A stretch of 64,000 bases of DNA from Vicinamibacteria bacterium. GTDB taxonomy: Bacteria; Acidobacteriota; Vicinamibacteria; Vicinamibacterales; JAENWD01. The stretch lies in the NCBI GenBank assembly GCA_963697705.1, contig CAVOPA010000003.1, forward strand, positions 832,176 through 896,175, written 5' to 3'. Made by a program: the position numbers and the translations under genes. The notes under the pieces are model-generated. The model saw only the letters and a list, made by a program, of their open reading frames with translations. It was not told the DNA's origin and did no database searches. Of the stretch, positions 4,212 to 60,819 are shown piece after piece (positions within the stretch are counted from its first letter, which is position 1; every line of letters begins with the position of its first letter).

Positions 4212-4277
4212 GTCCCACTCTGCCACAGGGACCATGCGCCGCCAAGCGGCCCCGGGCCGCCTACTGTGAGGCCCGCG

Positions 4278-4547
4278 GAATGCGAAATGCACAATGCAAA
4301 ATGACACCAGCCAGATGCGGGCAGGCGTCGGCGCTCGCGTCAGCGGCGCGGCTTCCGGCGTTCAGCCGCTTGGCGTGAACCGCTGCGCTTAACGCCACGC
4401 CAGACGCAGCCCCTCAGCCAACCGAGCACGGTCCGTTCCCTCCGGCCGGCGCGCGAGTCCAGAGCCGTCGCCCGCCGCCAAGGCCTACCGCCAGCCGCCA
4501 GCCGCCAGCCGCCAGCCGCCAGCCGCCTGTGCATTGTGCATTACACG
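4278..4547. repeat. Word palindrome, ATGCACA-type arms around a ~220-nt core
   Basis: Left gaatgcgaaatgcacaatgcaaaatgaca (4278-4306). Right tgtgcattgtgcattacacg (4528-4547). tgcacaatgca and tgcattgtgca are exact reverse complements. The core ends in (CCGCCAG) x5.7 at 4488-4527. Confidence 0.7.
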
Positions 4548-7253: not shown

Positions 7254-7400
7254 CCGGAATGCACGATGCACAATGCACAATGACAGACGCGGGCACCGTC
7301 CTCGACATGAACACCGCGTGTGGCCGTGTCGAGCATGGTCGTTAGCTTCAGTCGCATCCAGTCTGCCGGCCGTTGTGCATTGTGCCTTGTGCATTACTCG
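7254..7400. repeat. Word palindrome, ATGCACA-type, between convergent genes
   Basis: Left ccggaatgcacgatgcacaatgcacaatgacag (7254-7286). Right ccggccgttgtgcattgtgccttgtgcattactcg (7366-7400). Loop contains a nested hairpin ctcgaca (7301-7307) / tgtcgag (7327-7333). Confidence 0.8.
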
Positions 7401-9767: not shown

Positions 9768-9900
9768 AAAGGCCAAAGGCTAAGGGCCAAAGGCTTAGGG
9801 CCAACCGCTGAAGGCCCAAGCGCGAGTCGGCTCGTGACCGCGAGCTCGCCAAGGGGCCTTTAGCCATTGGCCCTTAGCCATCAGTCCTTAGCCCTGAACC
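9768..9900. repeat. Word palindrome, GGCTAAGGGCCAA-type, filling the thiolase-hbd spacer
   Basis: Left aaaggccaaaggctaagggccaaaggcttagggcc. Right ggcctttagccattggcccttagccatcagtccttagccc. The right arm contains the thiolase stop codon and the left arm abuts the hbd GTG. Confidence 0.8.
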
Positions 9901-11063
9901 AGCGCCGCGATCCCCTGCCCGCCGCCGATACACGCCGCCGCCACGCCGCGATGTGCGCCGCGCCGTCGCATTTCGAGGGCGAGCGTGAGCAGCAGGCGCG
10001 TGCCACTCATGCCGAGCGGATGACCGAGGGCGATGGCGCCGCCGTTGACGTTCACCGCCTCGCGAGGCAGACCCAGCTCCTGTTCGACCGCGAGGTACTG
10101 CGCGGCAAAGGCCTCGTTGATCTCGAACAAATCGATGTCGCCGAGCGTCAGCCCCGTGCGCTCGAGCAGCATCCGTGTAGCCGGTGCCGGCCCCATTCCC
10201 ATCAGCGTCGGCTCCACCCCCGTCGTCGCCCAACCCGCGAGCCTGCCGAGCGGCGTGACGCCGAGACGCTCCACCGCCGCGCCCGAAGCCAGGATCAACG
10301 CCGCGCCGCCATCGACGATGCCGCTGGCGTTGCCGGCGGTCACACACCCGTTCTTCGAGAAGGCCGCAGGCAGCTTCGCCAAGACTTCGAGCGTTGTCTG
10401 CGGCCGCATGTGATCGTCGCGAGTGAAAGCTTCGACACCCTTGCGCGATTTCACCTCCACGGCAACGACTTCGTCCGAGAATCGCCCCGCGTCCCAGGCG
10501 GCCGCCGCGCGCTGCTGGCTGAGTAGCGCGTACTCGTCCTGGGCGTTCCGCGAGATGCCGTATTTACCGGCACAATTCTCGGCCGTCACCGCCATGCTGC
10601 AGCCGCAATGCGTGTCGGTGAGGGCCTCCCAGAGCGAATCTTCGAGGGTGCCCTGTCCAAGGCGCAGACCGCCGCGCAGCCCGCGGATCACGTGGGGCGC
10701 CTGGCTCATGCTCTCGGCGCCACCGGTCAGCACGACGTCAGCTTCGCCCAGCAGGATCATCTGCGCACCGCTGATCGCGGCCTGAATGCCAGACCCGCAG
10801 AGGCGATTCACGGTGAGCGCAGGCACGTCCACCGGCACGCCGGCTTTGAGCCCGATATGGCGCGCACCGTAGATCGCATCCGCGCTCGTTTGCAGCACAT
10901 TACCGAACACGACGTGGGCGATCTGATCCGGGCGAACGCCCGTCCGTGTGAACGCCGCCCGGGCCGCGATGGCGCCGAGGTCGAGCGCGGAGATGTCCTT
11001 CAACGCGCCGACATACTCCGCCATCGGCGTGCGGGCGCCGCCCACTATGAAGACTTCAGTCAT
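9888..11063 (-). CDS. Acetyl-CoA C-acetyltransferase (thiolase II)
   Basis: NRLCGSGIQA (active Cys), NEAFAAQ, GHPLGMSGTRLL, ACIGGGQGIA. Confidence 0.93.
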   Translation of the reverse strand: MTEVFIVGGARTPMAEYVGALKDISALDLGAIAARAAFTRTGVRPDQIAHVVFGNVLQTSADAIYGARHIGLKAGVPVDVPALTVNRLCGSGIQAAISGAQMILLGEADVVLTGGAESMSQAPHVIRGLRGGLRLGQGTLEDSLWEALTDTHCGCSMAVTAENCAGKYGISRNAQDEYALLSQQRAAAAWDAGRFSDEVVAVEVKSRKGVEAFTRDDHMRPQTTLEVLAKLPAAFSKNGCVTAGNASGIVDGGAALILASGAAVERLGVTPLGRLAGWATTGVEPTLMGMGPAPATRMLLERTGLTLGDIDLFEINEAFAAQYLAVEQELGLPREAVNVNGGAIALGHPLGMSGTRLLLTLALEMRRRGAHRGVAAACIGGGQGIAALVQG

Positions 11064-11064
11064 T

Positions 11065-11241
11065 CCCGTGATCCGTTATCCGTGATCCGTTGGTTCGTCG
11101 ATCCGCTGTTCGTCGTCCGTTCCGTCGTTCCGTCATCCGCTGACCGCGCATTCGCCGCCGTGGGAGAGGCCGACTTGTGAATCGCTCCGGCGATCAGCGT
11201 CAACGCGGCGGATACCGGATAACGGATAACGTGTCAACGGG
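11065..11241. repeat. Word palindrome, ATCCGTT-type, filling the IPMDH-thiolase spacer
   Basis: Left cccgtgatccgttatccgtgatccgttggttcgtcgatccgctgttcgtcgtccgttccgtcgttccgtcatccg. Right ggcggataccggataacggataacgtgtcaacggg. cgttatccg pairs with cggataacg. Confidence 0.75.
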
Positions 11242-11264
11242 AAGTGATTGCGTCGACAATCGCC

Positions 11265-12287
11265 TCACCCACCGCAATCGTCCCCCTGCGTACCGCCGAT
11301 ATCAGGCGTGCCGATGCCGTCGTTGACCACGTGGCGGACGGCCCGGTCGATCGCAGCCGCTTCGTCAGTCAGACCGAGATGCGCGAGCATCAGGCCGGCG
11401 GACAGGATCGCACCCATCGGGTTCGCCACGTTCCGGCCCGCCAGCGGCGGCGCCGAACCGTGCACCGGCTCGAACATCGAGGTGCGGCCAGGGTGCACGT
11501 TCGCCGACGCGGCCATTCCGAGGCCTCCCTGTAGGGCGGCGCCAAGGTCGGTGATGATGTCGCCGAACAGGTTATTGGTCACGATGACGTCGAACTGCGC
11601 CGGCTCGCGCACCATCTGCAGCACCAGGGCGTCGATGTACTGGTGTGACGCATGGATGTCCGGAAATTCCGGTGCCACGGCGCGGAAGATGCGCTGCCAC
11701 AGGGCATGCCCGTCGGCCATGGCGTTGCTCTTGTCGGTCATGCACACGCGCGTGCGGCCGTGCACGCGTGCCCATTCGAACGCATACCGCACGATGCGGT
11801 TGACGCCCTTCCACGTATTGACCTCTTCCTGGATTGCGATCTCGTCCTCGGTGCCAGGCTTCACGCGACCGCCGACGCCAACATACACACCCTCGGTGTT
11901 CTCACGGAAGATCGCCATGTCGATGTCGGCCGGTGTGCGGTCCTTCAGCGGACAGAGCCGCGCGTCGAAGAGCGTGACGGGCCGGTAGTTCACGTACAAA
12001 TCGAGCTCGAAACGAATCCCGAGCAGGATGTCGCGCGCGTGCCGGCTGTCGGGCACCCGCGGATCGCCGAGCGCCCCGACGAGCACCGCGTCGAAGTCGT
12101 CCCTGAGCATCACGTACCCATTCGCGGGCACGGTGACGCCGGTCTCGAGGTAGTAGTCGGCGCCCCAAGGGATTTGTTCGATCTCGAACGTGCGCCCGAA
12201 GACATCGCCGACACGCCGGATCGCGCGGAGGGCTTCGGCTACGACCTCTTTGCCTATGCCGTCGCCGGGGATGACCGCCAGCCGCAT
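11265..12287 (-). CDS. Isocitrate/isopropylmalate dehydrogenase family enzyme (3-IPM or tartrate dehydrogenase-like)
   Basis: MRLAVIPGDGIGKEV, YVNYRPV, FRENTEGVY, NLFGDIITDLGAALQGGLG, EPVHGSAP. The C-terminus looks frameshifted (see findings); a corrected frame would end near 11234. Confidence 0.85.
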   Translation of the reverse strand: MRLAVIPGDGIGKEVVAEALRAIRRVGDVFGRTFEIEQIPWGADYYLETGVTVPANGYVMLRDDFDAVLVGALGDPRVPDSRHARDILLGIRFELDLYVNYRPVTLFDARLCPLKDRTPADIDMAIFRENTEGVYVGVGGRVKPGTEDEIAIQEEVNTWKGVNRIVRYAFEWARVHGRTRVCMTDKSNAMADGHALWQRIFRAVAPEFPDIHASHQYIDALVLQMVREPAQFDVIVTNNLFGDIITDLGAALQGGLGMAASANVHPGRTSMFEPVHGSAPPLAGRNVANPMGAILSAGLMLAHLGLTDEAAAIDRAVRHVVNDGIGTPDIGGTQGDDCGG

Positions 12288-12326
12288 GTCATGCAGGATG
12301 TCGGATGACGGATGCCGAATGCAAGG
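12285..12326. repeat. Low-coordinate arm of the GGATGNCG-word palindrome enclosing the four-helix-bundle ORF
   Basis: catgtcatgcaggatgtcggatgacggatgccgaatgcaagg. Includes the IPMDH start codon (12285-12287). Confidence 0.8.
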
Positions 12327-12415
12327 CTCGTCGATTCTGTCCGCCGGCGCCGAGCACAGAAGCATGTCGGATGGCGGGGGCCGGCCCCCGCGCCTAGATA
12401 TTCGACGATCCCGAT

Positions 12416-12788
12416 TCAGCCGCGACCTGGGTTGGAGCGCGCGTTGCGCAGAATCACAGTTAGTACCTGACACCAAGCCGTTAGCCTCGCGCAGCAATGG
12501 CGTAGCTGCCTCGACGAGCGCCGGCCGCTTGTTGCTGATCACGCGGAGCCAAAAATACGACTCGCGCGCCTCCTTCAAAGCGATAGCGCCCTTTGCGATG
12601 AAATCTGCCTTGCTCTGTCCAGCAGAGGCCTCCTCGAGGTTCGAGCCTATGCTCGTAGCGGCCTTGAACAATTGCCAGATCAAATGCCGGGTGGTGGCTC
12701 GCAGGTCCCGAACGGAATCGCAGAAATCGATCACGTCGCAGGCGAAGTTGAACGCACGATCATGAATATCTCGCGGCTTCTGCGTCAC
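12416..12788 (-). CDS. Four-helix-bundle protein (23S rRNA intervening-sequence protein family, TIGR02436/PF05635-like), apparent frameshift near the 3' end
   Basis: FNFACDVIDFC...QLFKAATSIGSNLEEASAGQSKADFIAKGAIALKEARESYFWLRVI. After ...LLREANGLV the family-typical tail (QVLTVILRNARSNPGRG-stop at about 12416) is in the neighbouring frame. As sequenced, the ORF reads through into the IPMDH gene, giving the 507-aa track ORF. Confidence 0.75.
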
Positions 12789-12860
12789 AGCGGCACGCGC
12801 ATGCGAAGGCCATGCCTGAGGTCAGCAATCGTCAAATCGTCCCTGCCGACCTGCAGTGCT

Positions 12861-13012
12861 ATGCGCCATCCGCCATCCGCATCCGCCATCCTGCATCCGC
12901 CATCCTGGCATCCGGCATCCGTCGCATTCGGCATCCGGCATTCGACATCCGGCATTCGACATTCATCGACATCCGACATCCGACATCCGGCATCCGGCAT
13001 CAGGCATCCGAG
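12861..13012. repeat. High-coordinate arm (CATCCG/CATTCG words, ~150 nt) of the same palindrome
   Basis: ...gcattcggcatccggcattcgacatccggcattcgacattcatcgacatccgacatccgacatccggcatccggcatcaggcatccgag. Ends 3 nt from the thiolase stop at 13015. Confidence 0.8.
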
Positions 13013-13014
13013 AA

Positions 13015-14226
13015 TCAGCCGTTCGTGTCGCACCTTTCAATGGCGAGCGCCATCCCCATCCCCCCGCTCACGCACAACGTGGCCAGGCCCCGGCGGGCCT
13101 GGCGGCGGTGCAGTTCGTGGAGCAGCGTGACGAGGATCCGTGTGCCGGTGCAGCCGATCGGATGTCCGAGCGCAATGGCGCCGCCGTTGACGTTCAGGCG
13201 CTCACGATCGATCGGGAGGTCGGCGAGCACGGCGAGCACCTGCGGGGCGAAGGCTTCGTTCAGCTCCACCAGATCGAAGTCGTCGAGCGTGAGCTGGAGG
13301 CGATCGAGCAGCTTGCGGACTGCGGGGACCGGCCCGATGCCCATGCGGGCCGGATCGACGCCGACGGTGGCCCAGCCAAGGATCCGCGCGAGGGGACGCA
13401 GGCCGTGCTTGCGTATGGCGGCCGCACTGGCCACGAGCACGGCGGCACCGCCGTCAGTGATGCCGGACGAGGAACCTGCCGTGATGATGCCGGGCAAGCC
13501 CGCCACCTGCGGAAACACCGGCGGCAGTTTCTTCAGCGCCTCGATCGTCGTCCCTGCCCTCGGATGCTCGTCGGCGGCGATCGTCGTGCCGCTTTTCGGC
13601 CCGGGCACGTGGACGGCCGTGATCTCGGCAGCGAAACGGCCCTCGCGCGTTGCGGCGTCGGCCCGATGCTGACTGAGGAGCGCGTAGTCGTCGGATGCCT
13701 CCCGCGTGATGCCATAGTCGCGCGCGAGCAGCTCCGCCGTCTCACCCATGATCAGCCCTGAAAGGGGGCACTGGAAACCGTCGCGATACATTGCGTCGAC
13801 GAGTGCGAAGTGCCCCATCTTGTGCCCCCACCGCGCATCGTCAGCGTCAAGCAGGTAGGGCATGCGGCTCATCGATTCGATGCCGCCCGCGAGCACGACG
13901 TCGGCGTCGCCCGCTGCGATCGCCTGCGCGGCCGAGGCGACGGCCTGCAGGCCCGACGCGCACGCCTGGTTCAGCGTCCACGCGGGCACGCGATCGGCAA
14001 GGCCGACATGGCGACCGACCTGCCGCGCGGGGTTCGGGCCAGACCCCGCCTGACGCGCGTGCCCGATGACGACGAGATCGATCAGCCCGGGATCGATCGC
14101 AGCGCGCTCAATCGCTGCGCGCGCGGCGATGGCGCCGAGCTCCGCAGGATGCACGCTCTTCAAGCCTCCGCCATAGCGCCCGATCGGCGTGCGCGCTCCA
14201 GCGACGATGAACGTCTCCGTCATCAC
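13015..14226 (-). CDS. Acetyl-CoA acetyltransferase / thiolase (second paralog)
   Basis: NQACASGLQA, NEAFAPQ, GHPIGCTGTRIL, LCVSGGMGMA. Confidence 0.93.
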   Translation of the reverse strand: MMTETFIVAGARTPIGRYGGGLKSVHPAELGAIAARAAIERAAIDPGLIDLVVIGHARQAGSGPNPARQVGRHVGLADRVPAWTLNQACASGLQAVASAAQAIAAGDADVVLAGGIESMSRMPYLLDADDARWGHKMGHFALVDAMYRDGFQCPLSGLIMGETAELLARDYGITREASDDYALLSQHRADAATREGRFAAEITAVHVPGPKSGTTIAADEHPRAGTTIEALKKLPPVFPQVAGLPGIITAGSSSGITDGGAAVLVASAAAIRKHGLRPLARILGWATVGVDPARMGIGPVPAVRKLLDRLQLTLDDFDLVELNEAFAPQVLAVLADLPIDRERLNVNGGAIALGHPIGCTGTRILVTLLHELHRRQARRGLATLCVSGGMGMALAIERCDTNG

Positions 14227-14311
14227 TGAACGATCTTATCCGGTGTCACAGACACCCGACGATGGGTCGTCGGCGATGACGGGTTCGGTCAGCACCCGGC
14301 GGCCCGCCGAC

Positions 14312-15748
14312 CTACGGTCCCGCACGCCGATACACCCGCATCCGCTCACCGTCGCCCGGCCGGTCCGAGAACCGCACCAGGCGCTCACCGAATGGGCGCA
14401 GCGGCAGGTGCGGATTGTCGCCGAGCCATTCGTTCGTCAGGAGGACTCCCTCAGGCGCAAGCATCGCCGCGATGTTTGCCGTGGCAAGCGCCTGCTCGAA
14501 GATGTCGTAGTAGATCAGCACGTTGGTGGCGACCACCACGTCGAAGCGCTCGCCCGGCGGGAGATCCAGGCGCTGGTAGACGATGTCGAGGTCGAGCGCA
14601 GTCAAGAGACGAGGGACGTCGGCGGAGAGCCGGACGGCTCGGCGTTCGAGCGTGCCGGCGTTGTTGGGGGGCGCCAGGGGATGAGCCGCGGCGCCGACCC
14701 GTGTGCCCACAGCCTGCCACCAGGCGCGCGCCTCCGGCGTCCACGGCACGGCCGGATCGAGCGTGAGCTGCAGGTCGTACGGTCTGGCTTTCGGAGAATC
14801 GACGAGCCGACGCAGGTGCTGATTGACGCGAGGGCTGACGTCGAAGGTCGTGAGGCGAAGGTCTCGTGAGGCGACGCCGAGGGTCGCGAGCGAATCGATC
14901 ACGGCGAACGGCTGGAAGGTCTGCGGCGGGTAGTAATCCTGTCCCTCGGCCTTGTCGATGAAGTCGAGGCCAGGACCAATCACCGCGATGCGCCGCACGC
15001 CGCTCGCAGGCAGGATACTCCTGGCTTGCAGATCCGCGAGGGCGCCGTGGACTGCAAATGCGATCGGCCACGATGTGTCGGACGCCAGCGCGCGCGACGC
15101 AAAGAGGTGCGCCCGCCGCGCGATGTCCGCGCGTTCCCCGCCCGACTCCCCTGCCGCGAGCGCGGCGCCGAGTTCCCGGCTCTCGCGCGTGACCCGCGCG
15201 AAGTTTGCGAGCAGGTAGGCGCGCGCGCGAGTCGCGCCGGCCGGCGTTTCCACGGGCAGGCCGAGGCGATCGAACGTCGCGCGCACCCACGCCAGCCGTT
15301 CGTCACCCGCCGGAGTTCCGGCCGCAGTGACCAGGTCGGAGACGCGCGCGTGGATCGCGCCGCCAACCACGCGCTCGACTCCCGCCGTTCCCGTTCCGTC
15401 GGCCGCCGCGCGCGCAGTCGCATCGGCAATGAACGCGACCGTGATCCGTGGCGCCGTGGTGAAGCTCGTGCCGTAGACGAGCAGATACGCGAGCGCGTCT
15501 TCTTCGGCGCGGAGGACGCGGCCGCGAACGGCGGCGTCGCGCGCCCTCACCCAAGCGGTCCACCGCGCCGCGCCCTCCGTGTCGGACGGCAGGTCTGCTG
15601 GCGCGTGCTCGGCCACCGCGGGGAGCACGGAGGCGATCTCGCCGCGGAACACGAAGCGGACGCGAGATCCGTCGGCGGCGGCGAGCCCGAGCGCGAGAGC
15701 GCCGAGGGGGAGCCACACGAGAAACGGGGTGCGGCGGAACGGAGGCAC
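14312..15748 (-). CDS. Hypothetical exported/membrane-anchored protein with a methyltransferase-like C-terminal region
   Basis: GTG start before FLVWLPLGALALGLAAA. C-terminal RIAVIGPGLDFID...FDVVVATNVLIYYDIFEQALATANIAAMLAPEGVLLTNE resembles a class I MTase fold. The track start at 15868 lies in REP-like repeats. Confidence 0.55.
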   Translation of the reverse strand: MPPFRRTPFLVWLPLGALALGLAAADGSRVRFVFRGEIASVLPAVAEHAPADLPSDTEGAARWTAWVRARDAAVRGRVLRAEEDALAYLLVYGTSFTTAPRITVAFIADATARAAADGTGTAGVERVVGGAIHARVSDLVTAAGTPAGDERLAWVRATFDRLGLPVETPAGATRARAYLLANFARVTRESRELGAALAAGESGGERADIARRAHLFASRALASDTSWPIAFAVHGALADLQARSILPASGVRRIAVIGPGLDFIDKAEGQDYYPPQTFQPFAVIDSLATLGVASRDLRLTTFDVSPRVNQHLRRLVDSPKARPYDLQLTLDPAVPWTPEARAWWQAVGTRVGAAAHPLAPPNNAGTLERRAVRLSADVPRLLTALDLDIVYQRLDLPPGERFDVVVATNVLIYYDIFEQALATANIAAMLAPEGVLLTNEWLGDNPHLPLRPFGERLVRFSDRPGDGERMRVYRRAGP

Positions 15749-26398: not shown

Positions 26399-26410
26399 CA
26401 CGTACCGGAA

Positions 26411-26515
26411 GGGCTAAAGGCTAAGGGCCAAGGGCTTAGGGACGGCCGGGGTTAAGGCCCAGAACTCGACTAGCCCTCAGCGGTGCCCTTAGCCCTCAGC
26501 CTTTAGCCCTCAGCC
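26411..26515. repeat. Word palindrome, GGCTAAGGGCC-type, between convergent genes
   Basis: Left gggctaaaggctaagggccaagggcttaggg (26411-26441). Right cccttagccctcagcctttagccctcagcc (26486-26515), ending 1 nt from the M14 stop codon. Confidence 0.8.
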
Positions 26516-38496: not shown

Positions 38497-39996
38497 ATGG
38501 CGAATCCGCGCACGGCGGTGGCGAGCGGCGCAACGGCGCTCGACACCGAGTTCAACCGCGGCCTCGGTCTCTATGACGCCACGATGGTGGTGGTAGGGTC
38601 GATGATCGGCTCCGGCATCTTCATCGTGCCAGCAGACATGGCGCGCCAGCTGGGGAGCCCCGGGTGGCTGCTGGTGGCGTGGGTGGTGACCGGTGTGCTC
38701 ACGATTGCGGCGGCGCTGTCGTACGGCGAGCTGGCGGCGATGATGCCCCGTGCCGGCGGTCAGTATGTATACCTGCGCGAGGCGTTCTCGCCGCTGTGGG
38801 GCTTCCTCTACGGCTGGACGCTGTTCCTCATCATCCAGACGGGAACGATCGCCGCCGTTGCCGTCGCGTTCGCGCGCTTCCTCGGCGTGATCTGGCCCGC
38901 CATCGGCGAGGAACACTACATCGTCGCGCCCGTGCACCTGAGCGCCGGGTACGCGGTGTCGCTGTCGACGGCGCAGCTGGTCGGCGTGCTCCTCATCGCC
39001 TTGCTCACGTGGAGCAATACGCGCGGGCTGGAGTACGGAAAGATCGTTCAGAACGTCTTCACGACGGCAAAGACCGGCGCCGTGATCGCGCTCATCGGCC
39101 TCGGGCTCGTGCTGGGGTGGAACGCCACGGCGGTCGATGCGAACTTCGGCGCCTTCTGGACGCCGCGCGGCCAGGTCGACATCGTTCCCGGCCTCTCGGC
39201 ACTCACGGCGTTCGGTCTCTTCGCGGCCATCTGCGTTGCCCAGACCGGGTCGCTCTTCTCGGCCGACTCGTGGCACAACGTGACGTTCACCGCCGGCGAG
39301 GTGAAGGATCCGAGGCGCAATCTGCCGCTCTCGCTTGCGCTTGGCACCGGCATCGTCATCACGCTCTACCTGCTCGCGAACGTGGCCTACATCGTCACGC
39401 TGCCCCTCGAGGCGATTCAGCACGCGCCGTCGGATCGTGTTGCCACTGCCACACTGAACGCGATCTTTCCTGGGCTCGGCGCGACCCTGATGGCGGCCGC
39501 CATCATGATCTCGACTTTCGGGTGCAACAACGGCCTGATCCTGGCTGGCGCGCGAGCCTACTACGCGATGGCGCGCGACGGCCTGTTCTTCAGGCGCGTG
39601 GGGCACTTGAATGCCGCGAAGGTGCCAGCGGCCGGTCTGGTGCTGCAAGGCGTCTGGGCCGCCGTGTTGGTATTGCCTCGCACCTACGACACCGCGACCG
39701 GCAAGTATGGCAACCTGTACGGCAACCTGCTCGACTACGTGATCTCGGCGGCGTTAATCTTCTACATCCTGACCATCGCCGGCGTGTTCAGGCTCCGCCA
39801 CACGCGCCCCAACGCCGATCGGCCGTACCGCGCGTTCGGCTATCCGGTCGTGCCCGCGCTGTACATGCTCGGAGCCAGCGCCATTCTCATCGTGCTCTTC
39901 GTGTACCGCGCATCCACGACCTGGCCCGGACTGCTCATCGTGCTGCTCGGGCTGCCGGTGTACTACGCGTGGCACGGGCGGGAGGAAGGGACGTAA
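38497..39996 (+). CDS. APC-family amino acid permease
   Basis: MANPRTAV...LGLYDATMVVVGSMIGSGIFIVP...YGELAAMMPRAGGQYVYL. About 12 hydrophobic segments. Confidence 0.88.
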   Translation: MANPRTAVASGATALDTEFNRGLGLYDATMVVVGSMIGSGIFIVPADMARQLGSPGWLLVAWVVTGVLTIAAALSYGELAAMMPRAGGQYVYLREAFSPLWGFLYGWTLFLIIQTGTIAAVAVAFARFLGVIWPAIGEEHYIVAPVHLSAGYAVSLSTAQLVGVLLIALLTWSNTRGLEYGKIVQNVFTTAKTGAVIALIGLGLVLGWNATAVDANFGAFWTPRGQVDIVPGLSALTAFGLFAAICVAQTGSLFSADSWHNVTFTAGEVKDPRRNLPLSLALGTGIVITLYLLANVAYIVTLPLEAIQHAPSDRVATATLNAIFPGLGATLMAAAIMISTFGCNNGLILAGARAYYAMARDGLFFRRVGHLNAAKVPAAGLVLQGVWAAVLVLPRTYDTATGKYGNLYGNLLDYVISAALIFYILTIAGVFRLRHTRPNADRPYRAFGYPVVPALYMLGASAILIVLFVYRASTTWPGLLIVLLGLPVYYAWHGREEGT

Positions 39997-40075
39997 TGCA
40001 AAATGCACGATGCACGATGCGACGATGCGACGATGCGACGATGGACAGACTGACATGTCGGATGCGGGATGCCGG
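39995..40075 (+). repeat. Direct octamer/heptamer word tract between convergent genes
   Basis: aatgcaaaatgcacgatgcacgatgcgacgatgcgacgatgcgacgatggacagactgacatgtcggatgcgggatgccgg. Confidence 0.75.
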
Positions 40076-48326: not shown

Positions 48327-48397
48327 GTGCGCTGAATCCTGGTCAGAGTCTCGTGGCGGCGACGTTTCGGCTGCGCTCGATGCGCTCGCGGGATCGC

Positions 48398-48632
48398 GGC
48401 CCGCCTGAAGGCGGGCACTACGTGACGATCACGGCCCACCTTGAGGCGGGCACTACGGACATCACGGCCCGCCTGAAGGCGGGCACTACGCGACGATCAC
48501 GGCCCGCCTGAAGGCGGGCACTACGCGACGATCACGGCCCGCCTGAAGGCGGGCACTACGCGACGATCACGGCCCGCCTGAGGCGGGCACTACGACGATC
48601 CGGCCCGCCTGGCGGGCACTACCTGACGATCC
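48398..48632 (+). repeat. Tandem array of 7 REP-like hairpin units (31-35 nt) between deoA and nupC
   Basis: Units start at 48398, 48433, 48466, 48501, 48536, 48571 and 48602. Consensus GGCCCGCCTGAAGGCGGGCACTACGCGACGATCAC. Three central units are identical. The last unit overlaps the deoA stop at 48619. Confidence 0.9.
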
Positions 48633-49920
48633 CGTGAATGAGGGGAACCGGCGGGGGCGGCTCGGCGCTTATCGTCACGGCGCGGGCGAGCAGCTCCCGT
48701 GCCTCGTCGGACCGCGCGCCGGCCCCGGGGTGCAGGCGGACGATCGGGTCCCCTGCCTCGACCCGGTCCCCCGGCTTGGCCAGCAGCACGAGCCCCGCGC
48801 CCGGATCGATCCGCGTGTCGAGGCGCTCGCGGCCGGCGCCGAGCACCATCGACGCGCGGCCGATGAGCGCGGCGTCCATCCCGGCCACGAAGCCGGAACG
48901 CGCAGCCGTGAACGGATCCGCGGCGGCCACGTGCGGCAGGCGGGCACGGTCCTCGATGATGCGGCGATCGCCGCCCTGGTTTTCCACCACCTGCCCGAAC
49001 TTCTCGAGCGCCGCACCCGAGGCGAGCGCCCGCCGCACGCGCTCGCCGGCGTCACGATCGTCGCCGGCTCCGGCGAGTCGCAGCATGCGCGCGGCAAGCG
49101 CCACGCACAGGTGCTCCAGATCCGAGGGGCCGCGCCCGGCCAGCGTGTCCAGGCACTCGCCGATCTCGAGCGCGTTGCCGATCGCGCGACCGAGCGGCGC
49201 ATCCATCGCGGTGAGCATGGCCTCGGTCTCGAGCCCCACCCGCGCGCCGATTGTCACCATCGCTTCAGCCAGCCGGCGGGCGTCGGCCTCCGTTTTCATG
49301 AAAGCGCCGCGGCCGACTTTCACGTCGAGCACCAGCACGTCGGTGCCCTCGGCGATCTTCTTACTCATGATCGATGACGCGATGAGCGGAATGCTCTCGA
49401 TCGTGCCGGTGACATCGCGCAACGCGTACAGTTTCTTGTCGGCGGGGGCGATATCCGCCGTCTGGCCGATGAAGGCACACCCGATCCGCTGCAGCGCCGC
49501 GAGGAACGCGTCGCGCTCCATCGCGACGCGGAACCCCGGAATGGACTCCAGCTTGTCGATGGTGCCGCCGGTGTGCCCGAGCCCTCGTCCTGAGCTCTTG
49601 GGCACCACCACTCCGCAGGCGGCCACGATCGGCGCGACCACGATCGACGTCTTATCGCCGACGCCGCCGGTGCTGTGCTTGCCTGCTTTCGTGCCCGGGA
49701 TTGCGGACAGGTCGACGCGGCGCCCCGATGCAACCATCGCCTCTGTGAGCCAGCCCGTCTCGTCCGCGCTCATGCCGCGAAGCAGCATGGCCATCAGCAG
49801 CGCCGACGTCTGGTACTCCGGGATGGTGTTCGCCGCGACGCCCGAGACGAAGAACTCGAGTTCCTCGCGCGTGAGAGCGGCGCCGTCCCGCTTCCGGACG
49901 ATGATGTCGACAATGCGCAT
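48619..49920 (-). CDS. deoA: Thymidine / pyrimidine-nucleoside phosphorylase
   Basis: MRIVDIIVRKRDG, KHSTGGVGDKTS, GRGLGHTGGTIDKLESIPG. The track ORF upstream extension to 50226 overlaps the divergent M14 gene. Confidence 0.92.
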   Translation of the reverse strand: MRIVDIIVRKRDGAALTREELEFFVSGVAANTIPEYQTSALLMAMLLRGMSADETGWLTEAMVASGRRVDLSAIPGTKAGKHSTGGVGDKTSIVVAPIVAACGVVVPKSSGRGLGHTGGTIDKLESIPGFRVAMERDAFLAALQRIGCAFIGQTADIAPADKKLYALRDVTGTIESIPLIASSIMSKKIAEGTDVLVLDVKVGRGAFMKTEADARRLAEAMVTIGARVGLETEAMLTAMDAPLGRAIGNALEIGECLDTLAGRGPSDLEHLCVALAARMLRLAGAGDDRDAGERVRRALASGAALEKFGQVVENQGGDRRIIEDRARLPHVAAADPFTAARSGFVAGMDAALIGRASMVLGAGRERLDTRIDPGAGLVLLAKPGDRVEAGDPIVRLHPGAGARSDEARELLARAVTISAEPPPPVPLIHGIVR

Positions 49921-60730: not shown

Positions 60731-60819
60731 AAATGTCGGATGCAGGATGGCGGATGCCGGATGCCAGAAAGTCCTTGGCGTCACATTCGACATCCAGCAT
60801 CCGACATCCCGCATCCTCT
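60731..60819. repeat. Word palindrome, GGATGNCG-type, between convergent genes
   Basis: Left aaatgtcggatgcaggatggcggatgccggatgccag. Loop aaagtccttggcgtcac. Right attcgacatccagcatccgacatcccgcatcctct, abutting the rng stop at 60818. Confidence 0.8.

Follow-up and report, generated by a model that had tools for sequence, protein, structure and literature searches.

We examined a stretch of 64,000 nucleotides from a Vicinamibacteria bacterium (Acidobacteriota; contig CAVOPA010000003.1, genome GC 67%), hereafter the window, and concentrated on a small gene of the four-helix-bundle family (S23p; PF05635/TIGR02436) that lies between two metabolic genes and is enclosed by two inverted arrays of heptamers. 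The row of genes occupies the minus strand and runs from a thiolase (14226 to 13015) through the small open reading frame (ORF), which starts with a GTG at 12788, to an isopropylmalate/tartrate dehydrogenase (IPMDH)-family gene (12287 to 11265), a second thiolase and a 3-hydroxyacyl-CoA dehydrogenase. The small gene together with its two arrays, which we call arms, amounts to an insert of ~730 bp, to which we refer as the cassette. The features of the locus are as follows.

13015..14226, minus strand: upstream cistron, thiolase (PF00108 and PF02803; stop codon 13015-13017)
12861..13012, minus strand: 5′ arm of the cassette in the operon RNA (high arm), ~20 tandem heptamers, CGGATGC/CGGATGT/CGAATGC on the minus strand
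12918..12963, minus strand: best-pairing part of the 5′ arm (RNAduplex −60.4 kcal/mol), with the inverted repeat 12924-12955
12789..12860, minus strand: leader of 72 nt from arm to start codon, weakly conserved in an alignment of seven orthologous cassettes
12416..12788, minus strand: four-helix-bundle gene (S23p/PF05635/TIGR02436), GTG at 12788, TGA at 12418-12416, extra G at 12466/12467
12374..12391, minus strand: GC palindrome of 18 nt, GCGGGGGCCGGCCCCCGC, 25 nt past the stop codon and without a following U run (read from the sequence)
12285..12327, minus strand: 3′ arm of the cassette in the operon RNA (low arm), ~4.5 heptamers, GCATTCG/GCATCCG on the minus strand, running into the IPMDH start
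11265..12287, minus strand: downstream cistron, IPMDH family (PF00180, 323 bits; NCBIfam), ATG at 12287-12285
11063 to 9888: second thiolase (ORF and domain calls)
9790 to 8900: 3-hydroxyacyl-CoA dehydrogenase (ORF and domain calls)

A four-helix-bundle gene between inverted heptamer arms

Tandem Repeats Finder reported a period-7 array at 12867-13010 (19.9 copies, consensus CATCCGG) and a short period-7 array at 12296-12314. The best inverted pair, 12291-12322 with 12924-12955, spans 32 nt at 91% complementarity (29/32) and is the longest inverted repeat with arms no more than 800 nt apart in the whole window. Thus, the ORF is indeed bracketed by the same words in opposite polarity, as an original prediction made from the sequence had claimed; the complementarity that it described is real, and its count of about 26 of 32 positions was too low. 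Each spacer beside the ORF holds one arm only, and the two arms match each other; the other repeats in 12200-13100 are three short two-copy matches of 12-17 nt. The high-arm array adjoins the thiolase as predicted, its end at 13012 being 2 nt, not 3 nt, from the stop codon. The low arm is the same in the window and in L081 and L082, two contigs of the same species.

The arms are predicted to pair in RNA. With both arms on the operon (minus) strand, RNAduplex gave −60.4 kcal/mol for a duplex of roughly 40 bp that covers 12918-12963 and 12285-12327, compared with −34.4 ± 4.7 kcal/mol for a shuffled low arm; among 1000 random genomic 46-mers, 2 reached −60.4 kcal/mol. In a partition-function fold of 12250-13050, low-arm bases paired with the high arm at a mean probability of 0.81, and the value approached 1.0 for most bases of the duplex segment 12285-12327. 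The long-range stem was present in both the minimum-free-energy and the centroid structures, so that pairing between the arms is favoured in the fold. The predicted duplex takes in the IPMDH ATG (12287-12285), ahead of which no purine-rich Shine-Dalgarno sequence is visible; the location of this start codon in the low arm and the missing Shine-Dalgarno sequence had both been foreseen.

We also looked for conventional expression signals and for known RNAs. A consensus scan of 11000-14400 found no sigma-70-like promoter, and 12250-13050 contained no intrinsic terminator, defined as a GC-rich hairpin with a U tract. The sole terminator site scored in 11000-14400 lies on the plus strand at 11711-11724, inside the IPMDH gene. 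The GC palindrome at 12374..12391, which is partly kept in L081, was not scored as a terminator. At gathering thresholds Rfam had no match in the whole window, large-subunit rRNA included, and no tRNA genes were present there. We considered whether the stem might be a bidirectional terminator that keeps host transcription away from the small gene. Most cassettes of the family have a pyrimidine/U-rich 3′ arm, and some ORF-less hairpins of the window (see below) lie between convergent genes, as this idea would have it. Nevertheless we regard it as highly improbable, since no terminator-like site was scored at the cassette, the GC-rich arms of this cassette have no U tract, and a terminator would be polar on the downstream cistron of an operon (thiolase-IPMDH here, araD-araA in Bacteroides), yet the cassette is stably kept in operons.

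The reading frame of the window copy deserves comment. The interval 12416-12788 comprises 373 nt, a number not divisible by 3. In the frame of the GTG at 12788 there is no stop codon and translation would continue into IPMDH, giving a 507-amino-acid ORF (11265-12788), while the TGA at 12418-12416 belongs to a different frame. The metagenome contigs L081 and L082, which are ~98-99% identical to the window, differ from it by one G at 12466/12467 (‘tcaggtac’ in the window, ‘tcagtac’ in the contigs), and both encode an intact 123-amino-acid protein, P0001. The window copy thus lacks an intact frame of about 115-125 codons and is either a recent pseudogene or the product of an assembly error in a homopolymer; the 373-nt ORF had been taken as intact, an assumption overturned by the extra G and the intact copies. 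A fusion of the four-helix-bundle protein with IPMDH was ruled out because L081 and L082 carry a stop codon in frame. For annotation, the lesson is that mechanical ORF calling yields a 507-residue artefact, made of the small gene, a translated heptamer arm and the dehydrogenase, through a single-base frameshift. The gene is also degraded or frameshifted in L002.

The family assignment of the original prediction was borne out by both profiles: PF05635 matched at 43.7-45.7 bits (cutoff 33.8) and, with the extra G removed, TIGR02436 matched at 61.8 bits (cutoff 24) over profile positions 2-107 of 109. This is a large family, with >7,800 clusters matched in one search and two crystal structures. 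The AlphaFold2 model of P0001, the intact orthologue (98% identical), has four helices and a mean predicted local distance difference test score of 92.7. Searched with Foldseek, it matched PDB 2RLD (E = 6e-5, TM score 0.8) and 2GSC (TM score 0.8) and, more distantly, Avd of the Bordetella phage diversity-generating retroelement (DGR; 4DWL, TM score about 0.6-0.7), which agrees with the prediction that DGR Avd shares the fold. The closest solved relatives are thus the structural-genomics ‘S23 ribosomal protein family’ members BT_0352 (2RLD) and Xcc0516 (2GSC); they come from other phyla and share about 28% and 20% sequence identity with the window protein, although a profile search reached 2RLD at E = 1.5e-29. 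2RLD, 2GSC and Avd are known homopentamers (literature and PDB chain counts). Unlike Avd in a DGR (4DWL; DGR ribonucleoprotein 8UB7), the window gene has a thiolase and a dehydrogenase as neighbours instead of a reverse transcriptase, no template/variable repeat pair was found, and sequence similarity between the two proteins is below detection; a DGR remnant was ruled out on the grounds of neighbours and repeats. PADLOC gave no match for the protein, and PHROGs gave one marginal match, to a family without assigned function. Among orthologues, the ratio of non-synonymous to synonymous substitution rates was 0.08-0.22 (0.09 for the dehydrogenase), which indicates that the four-helix-bundle protein is under purifying selection and is therefore maintained.

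The thiolase-dehydrogenase junction in related genomes

A search with the dehydrogenase protein returned relatives that assign the window to the Vicinamibacteria. The closest species representatives encode dehydrogenase proteins that are 85-86% identical to that of the window, and the thiolase-dehydrogenase-thiolase synteny is retained in most of 80 related genomes. All lineages whose IPMDH is at least 83% identical (L001, L002, L081, L082 and L163-L166) have the four-helix-bundle gene at this junction, always between inverted heptamer arrays; comparison of relatives therefore sustains the association of gene and arms. Where IPMDH is at most 75% identical, the gene is missing from the junction, at which the flanking genes overlap or are separated by tens of bases or by ORF-less heptamer arrays or hairpins; L003-L005 belong to this group and have short junctions without arrays. 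The distribution indicates that the cassette at this junction is limited to a genus-level clade.

The ORF is in the sense orientation relative to the operon only in the window, L081 and L082, and antisense in all other orthologous lineages. The loop has therefore undergone inversion between the lineage of the window and the remaining ones, the outcome expected of recombination between inverted arms. Within the window's species, all three strains agree in orientation.

The words of the orthologous arms are GCAGAAT, GTCGGAT and GCCGAAT in L163, GNCGGAT and GCCGAAT in the window, and GCACAAT in L001, L002, L165 and L166. They are linked by single-base steps, and both arms have changed together. 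On the thiolase side, the order and the number of units differ between the window and L081 despite surroundings that are ~99% identical, and the array is therefore hypervariable. As a separate observation, L163 (1800-1960) and L164 (1080-1200) share an identical four-helix-bundle protein and the dehydrogenase side; past the pyrimidine-rich array L163 enters a DUF1206 gene and L164 the thiolase, a possible rearrangement breakpoint at the array.

Outside the clade that has the gene, we noted at the same junction in L003-L080 that nearly every genome with arrays has a different 7-mer (for example L030, L031, L035, L036, L045, L053 and L058). The words include CTGAGAG, GCTGGAA, GGGGACC and GTTGAAA/TTTCAGT; the arrays reach 352 nt in L031, and L058 has nested hairpins. 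Heptamer arrays thus arise and are replaced rapidly in Vicinamibacterales, and they do so independently of the four-helix-bundle gene.

The cassette had also been suspected of being mobile. This part of the prediction survives weakly and on an evolutionary scale only: a single ancient insertion with vertical inheritance thereafter accounts most simply for the distribution at the junction. A search with profile hidden Markov models against six-frame ORFs of the window and of ~950 kb of related loci found copies at this junction only. No recombinase accompanies the cassette, and it does not qualify as a transposon or a miniature inverted-repeat transposable element, there being no near-identical copies that share terminal repeats. 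Recent mobility was rejected, as identical proteins never change context: P0056 (15 contigs) and P0130 (24 contigs read) each occur in a single genomic context.

Inverted arms throughout the family

We next consider homologues of the gene at other loci. Metagenome contigs were pattern-scanned with an alignment of 42 homologues, which yielded 80 loci (40-70% GC). For each assessable gene, a bracket score was obtained by aligning the upstream flank to the reverse complement of the downstream flank (200-nt flanks, threshold ≥30). The score was at least 30 at 76% of 59 assessable homologous genes, compared with 0.3% of 1488 control positions drawn from these loci, and the true site outscored every control in 40 of 42 loci. 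Inverted word arms thus accompany homologues well beyond this operon.

Arm statistics were taken from the 62 loci that scored 36 or more. Median arm length is 34 nt (range 22-85), or about 5 units, and most arms are period-7 arrays, array size ranging from 3 to 20 units. They lie close to the gene: the median distance is 18.5 nt from the end of the upstream arm to the start codon and 7 nt from the stop codon to the downstream arm. They are also polar in composition, with a median purine fraction of 0.75 in the upstream arm and 0.27 in the downstream arm; the upstream arm exceeded 0.6 purine in 52 of the 62 loci and fell below 0.4 in none (0/62). The bracket occurs in low-GC lineages as well, and the terminal words vary from locus to locus. 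At Rfam gathering thresholds, none of 40 homologue loci tested gave any match, rRNA included.

The same layout is found in named genomes. On L167, a 5.35-Mb chromosome of a metagenome-assembled genome, the gene is antisense between an aminotransferase gene and a MacB-type gene and has GAATGCT arrays. A Bacteroides BT_0352-like gene, whose product is 98% identical to the crystallised protein (PDB 2RLD), lies between araD and araA with (AATTGAC)4-5 upstream and (ATTGTCA)4 downstream, the latter ending 12 nt before the araA start; the closest solved relative thus shares the architecture of the window gene. In L168-L170 (1434-1933) the arabinose genes read araR, araD, the BT_0352-like gene, araA, and L170 has extra units. 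Genes annotated in RefSeq as ‘four helix bundle protein’ on plasmids of Nostoc punctiforme PCC 73102 have GTCGGAR arrays, and a plasmid-borne four-helix-bundle gene of N. flagelliforme has AATTCAA arrays in the same layout. On plasmid pANACY.01 of Anabaena cylindrica PCC 7122 (154903-156626; L179), we observed the gene antisense between cas2 and cas1, with AGTAAAA arrays. We conclude that the unit of gene and inverted heptamer arms, with the purine-rich arm 5′, recurs across phyla.

The family was earlier reported among cas genes, which was taken as a functional link (PMC3936711). The gene is repeatedly wedged into unrelated operons, between cas2/cas1 or cmr3/cmr2 in cyanobacteria, araD/araA in Bacteroides and thiolase/IPMDH in the window, and from these contexts the reported association may reflect insertion of the cassette into operon spacers. 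We found no earlier description of a family-wide heptamer bracket in the full-text literature, whose coverage mostly leaves out subscription journals; the bracket is probably new to the literature.

Although the words differ from locus to locus, they are related. Circular alignment of the purine-rich arm words (upstream arms of L083-L162 and L167-L180; 40-70% GC) gave the consensus RAAKKNA with 5.14 bits, compared with 2.84 ± 0.15 (maximum 3.21) for within-word shuffles fitted in the same way. With distinct words counted once, the values were 5.21 and 3.06 ± 0.21 bits.

Such a consensus raises the question of whether the pentameric protein binds the heptamers as iterated sites, be it to regulate its own gene, to chaperone RNA or, as Avd might suggest, to recruit a polymerase, in which case the complementarity of the arms would be secondary. 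RAAKKNA is conserved across phyla despite fast array turnover, the median arm of 34 nt holds about 5 units, and the structures 2RLD and 2GSC hold five chains each (homopentamer: Lin et al. 2006, as cited in PMC4990558 and PMC10053308). Avd, which is structurally related, belongs to the DGR ribonucleoprotein reverse-transcriptase complex (8UB7), and purifying selection on the protein likewise speaks for a binding role. On the other hand, the window's own word GGATGCC fits RAAKKNA poorly, the number of units extends over the whole range from 3 to 20, and protein binding leaves the inverted-copy relation of the arms unexplained. As a full account we judge it improbable, though it is compatible with the stem-loop reading preferred below.

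The window also contains inverted heptamer pairs that enclose no ORF, all of them intergenic:

7258-7283 / 7371-7395: ORF-less inverted heptamer pair
9778-9802 / 9855-9879: ORF-less inverted heptamer pair
11067-11089 / 11209-11231: ORF-less inverted heptamer pair, the only one without the purine-rich arm first
26410-26435 / 26485-26510: ORF-less inverted heptamer pair
60733-60756 / 60784-60807: ORF-less inverted heptamer pair
4275-4303 / 4527-4545: ORF-less inverted heptamer pair, weaker

The five clear pairs and the weaker sixth replace the more than ten ORF-less palindromes that had been claimed. Their words are AATGCAC, AAGGGCY, CGGATAA and CGGATGC, some of which recur at several spacers, and they sit between co-directional as well as between convergent genes; several unpaired heptamer arrays are also present. 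ORF-less hairpins share with the cassette the period of 7, the purine-then-pyrimidine polarity (17 to 3) and some in-genome words; the cassette arms of L001 and L002, for instance, are likewise built from AATGCAC. However, the suggestion that they are non-autonomous relatives of the cassette finds no support in word identity, as their words fit its consensus no better than chance: when the cassette word matrix was applied to heptamer arrays from the window and from 78 Vicinamibacterales loci, only 10% lay above the null's 95th percentile.

Given these hairpins, the small gene might merely have come to lie between two of the genome's many heptamer hairpins. Their abundance in the window, and the ORF-less hairpins with different words at the orthologous junction of other Vicinamibacterales, are what such a coincidence would require. 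It is nonetheless hardly credible: each flanking spacer holds a single arm and the arms match each other, the bracket is found at 76% of homologues and 0.3% of controls, it recurs in low-GC lineages and cultured strains, and the junction is short and free of arrays in lineages such as L003-L005, whose IPMDH is at most 75% identical.

Three further repeats of the window were noted. A perfect (CCGCCAG)x5.7 array at 4488-4527 lies in the loop between AATGCAA and TGTGCAT arrays. A composite spacer at 39992-40075 passes from AATGCAC heptamers through (ATGCGACG)x5 octamers to CGGATGC-type words. At 48392-48631, seven tandem 35-nt units (GATCACGGCCCGCCTGAAGGCGGGCACTACGCGAC, 90% matches), each with a GC-rich hairpin, lie directly upstream of a 1338-amino-acid ORF that starts at 48638.

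A candidate intervening-sequence-type cassette in an operon

The closest known parallel is the intervening sequence (IVS) in the 23S rRNA of Coxiella and Leptospira, which carries an S23p ORF (Ralph & McClelland 1993, as cited in PMC4990558). In Coxiella burnetii, the S23p ORF lies in a loop closed by a 28-bp terminal stem, which recombinant RNase III cuts mid-stem in vitro; just upstream of the ORF are 2-3 tandem GACAGAT heptamers, strain-variable in number, the 5′ cut falls at the first heptamer repeat, and the ORF is seemingly decaying (Warrier et al. 2016, PMC4990558). The cassette likewise has a homologous PF05635 ORF in the loop of a long terminal stem, purine-rich tandem heptamers of variable copy number directly upstream of the ORF, and an ORF prone to decay, frameshifted in the window copy and in L002. 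It differs in its host, which is a polycistronic mRNA spacer and not 23S helix 45 (the window holds no rRNA), in its much longer arms of up to about 20 units, and in that the ORF may be sense or antisense to the host transcript; cleavage by RNase III is here a prediction by analogy.

Other heptamer repeats resemble the cassette in part. Xanthomonas genomes have 70-75 convergent pairs of intergenic GGGAATC each, and Nostoc has GGGGAYT (Rehm et al. 2015, PMC4692102); TAACTGA repeats occur in Beggiatoaceae and cyanobacteria (MacGregor 2015, PMC4679880). Like the arms, these simple sequence repeats (SSRs) are intergenic, have a period of 7, vary in copy number among relatives and, in Xanthomonas, form inverted pairs. 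Unlike the arms, they are ORF-less and use one genome-wide word, whereas the word of the cassette arms changes from locus to locus and a gene lies between them. The cassette thus falls outside the Xanthomonas-type definition of convergent arrays with no gene between them, into which the ORF-less pairs of the window do fall; neither paper mentions a link of heptamer repeats to PF05635 genes. For Haemophilus influenzae, PMC12721329 reports a heptameric SSR and an RNase III-targeted element in a 5′ untranslated region. The common point is a heptamer-bearing transcript that RNase III helps to process, which for the cassette is a prediction; the element reportedly serves phase variation upstream of an adhesin gene and, as described, has neither an inverted second arm nor an enclosed ORF.

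We think it rather likely that the locus holds an IVS-type stem-loop cassette in the intercistronic spacer of a Vicinamibacteria operon. The unit would consist of a heptamer-array arm, a short leader, the Avd-like four-helix-bundle (S23p) gene and a complementary heptamer-array arm. In the thiolase-IPMDH transcript, the arms are predicted to close a duplex of roughly 40 bp extending to the IPMDH start codon. If the analogy with the homologous Coxiella and Leptospira 23S IVSs holds, RNase III would cut the long duplex, which would free the loop with the ORF and part the cistrons on either side. Slippage of the arrays plus copying between arms may keep the arms complementary. An insert of ~730 bp would be tolerated either way round in an operon because the stem is alike on both strands and cutting uncouples the cistrons, and an RNase III-cut stem would explain why the cassette abuts start and stop codons and occurs in operons and rRNA alike. 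The conserved word, the arms of about 5 units and the pentameric relatives further raise the possibility that the pentameric protein reads the heptamers. The IVS-like layout of an ORF in a stem, now in an mRNA spacer, was the core of the original prediction, and it is supported by the family-wide bracket, the orthologous junctions, the Bacteroides and cyanobacterial plasmid genes and the anatomy of the Coxiella element.

Several observations weigh against this explanation. Selection of the stem as RNA would favour G·U pairs over A·C mismatches, but neither strand shows such a bias. Arm mismatches in the 62 loci were sense-compatible in 66 cases and antisense-compatible in 72 (p = 0.67), and most of them are transversions; the comparison lends no support to strand-specific selection on the RNA, and homogenisation at the DNA level could explain the complementarity. 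The ORF is antisense in most orthologues, in which excision from the operon RNA cannot be the protein's route of expression. A stem needs no conserved word, and RAAKKNA therefore means that something else also reads the sequence. Finally, a cut beside the IPMDH start could be harmful instead of neutral.

The first of these points leads to an element that acts as DNA, its arrays acting as quasi-palindromes that form cruciforms or hairpins, as substrates of inversion or as structures for replication slippage, with template switching keeping the arms alike and the RNA stem incidental. Besides the absence of a strand-specific G·U bias, the inversion of the loop between close lineages, the hypervariability of the arrays between ~99% identical strains and the possible rearrangement breakpoint at the array of L163 and L164 agree with it, and the purine-then-pyrimidine polarity is a strand-symmetric property of DNA. 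But processing as RNA has been demonstrated for the homologous element of Coxiella (PMC4990558), the close fit of the arms to the ends of the ORF suggests a unit at the level of the transcript, and the shared orientation in three strains of the window's species means that inversion is not frequent. We consider this DNA-level account unlikely, while giving it serious weight. On balance, the stem-loop reading is to be preferred, by which the cassette would be an IVS-type element outside rRNA.

The finding bears on the family at large. Because the gene comes as a unit with two inverted arrays, its operon contexts may be cassette insertions and not operon partnerships. The Bacteroides araD-araA homologue offers a ready experimental model, and B. 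thetaiotaomicron (araD-BT_0352-araA) and Nostoc punctiforme PCC 73102 (NPUN_RS34315) are tractable carriers. RAAKKNA links one particular protein family (PF05635/TIGR02436) with the excess of heptamer repeats seen in bacteria. A more far-reaching proposal, which we put forward as speculative and rather doubtful, is that Avd-like genes and inverted RAAKKNA-type arrays make up phylum-spanning stem-loop cassettes in host transcripts, rRNA as well as operon spacers, and that the pentameric protein reads, maintains or helps to generate the arrays. If this were true, such cassettes would be one source of bacterial heptamer repeats, including cyanobacterial arrays resembling short tandemly repeated repetitive sequences and Xanthomonas-type arrays, and a large structural-genomics family would gain its first function.

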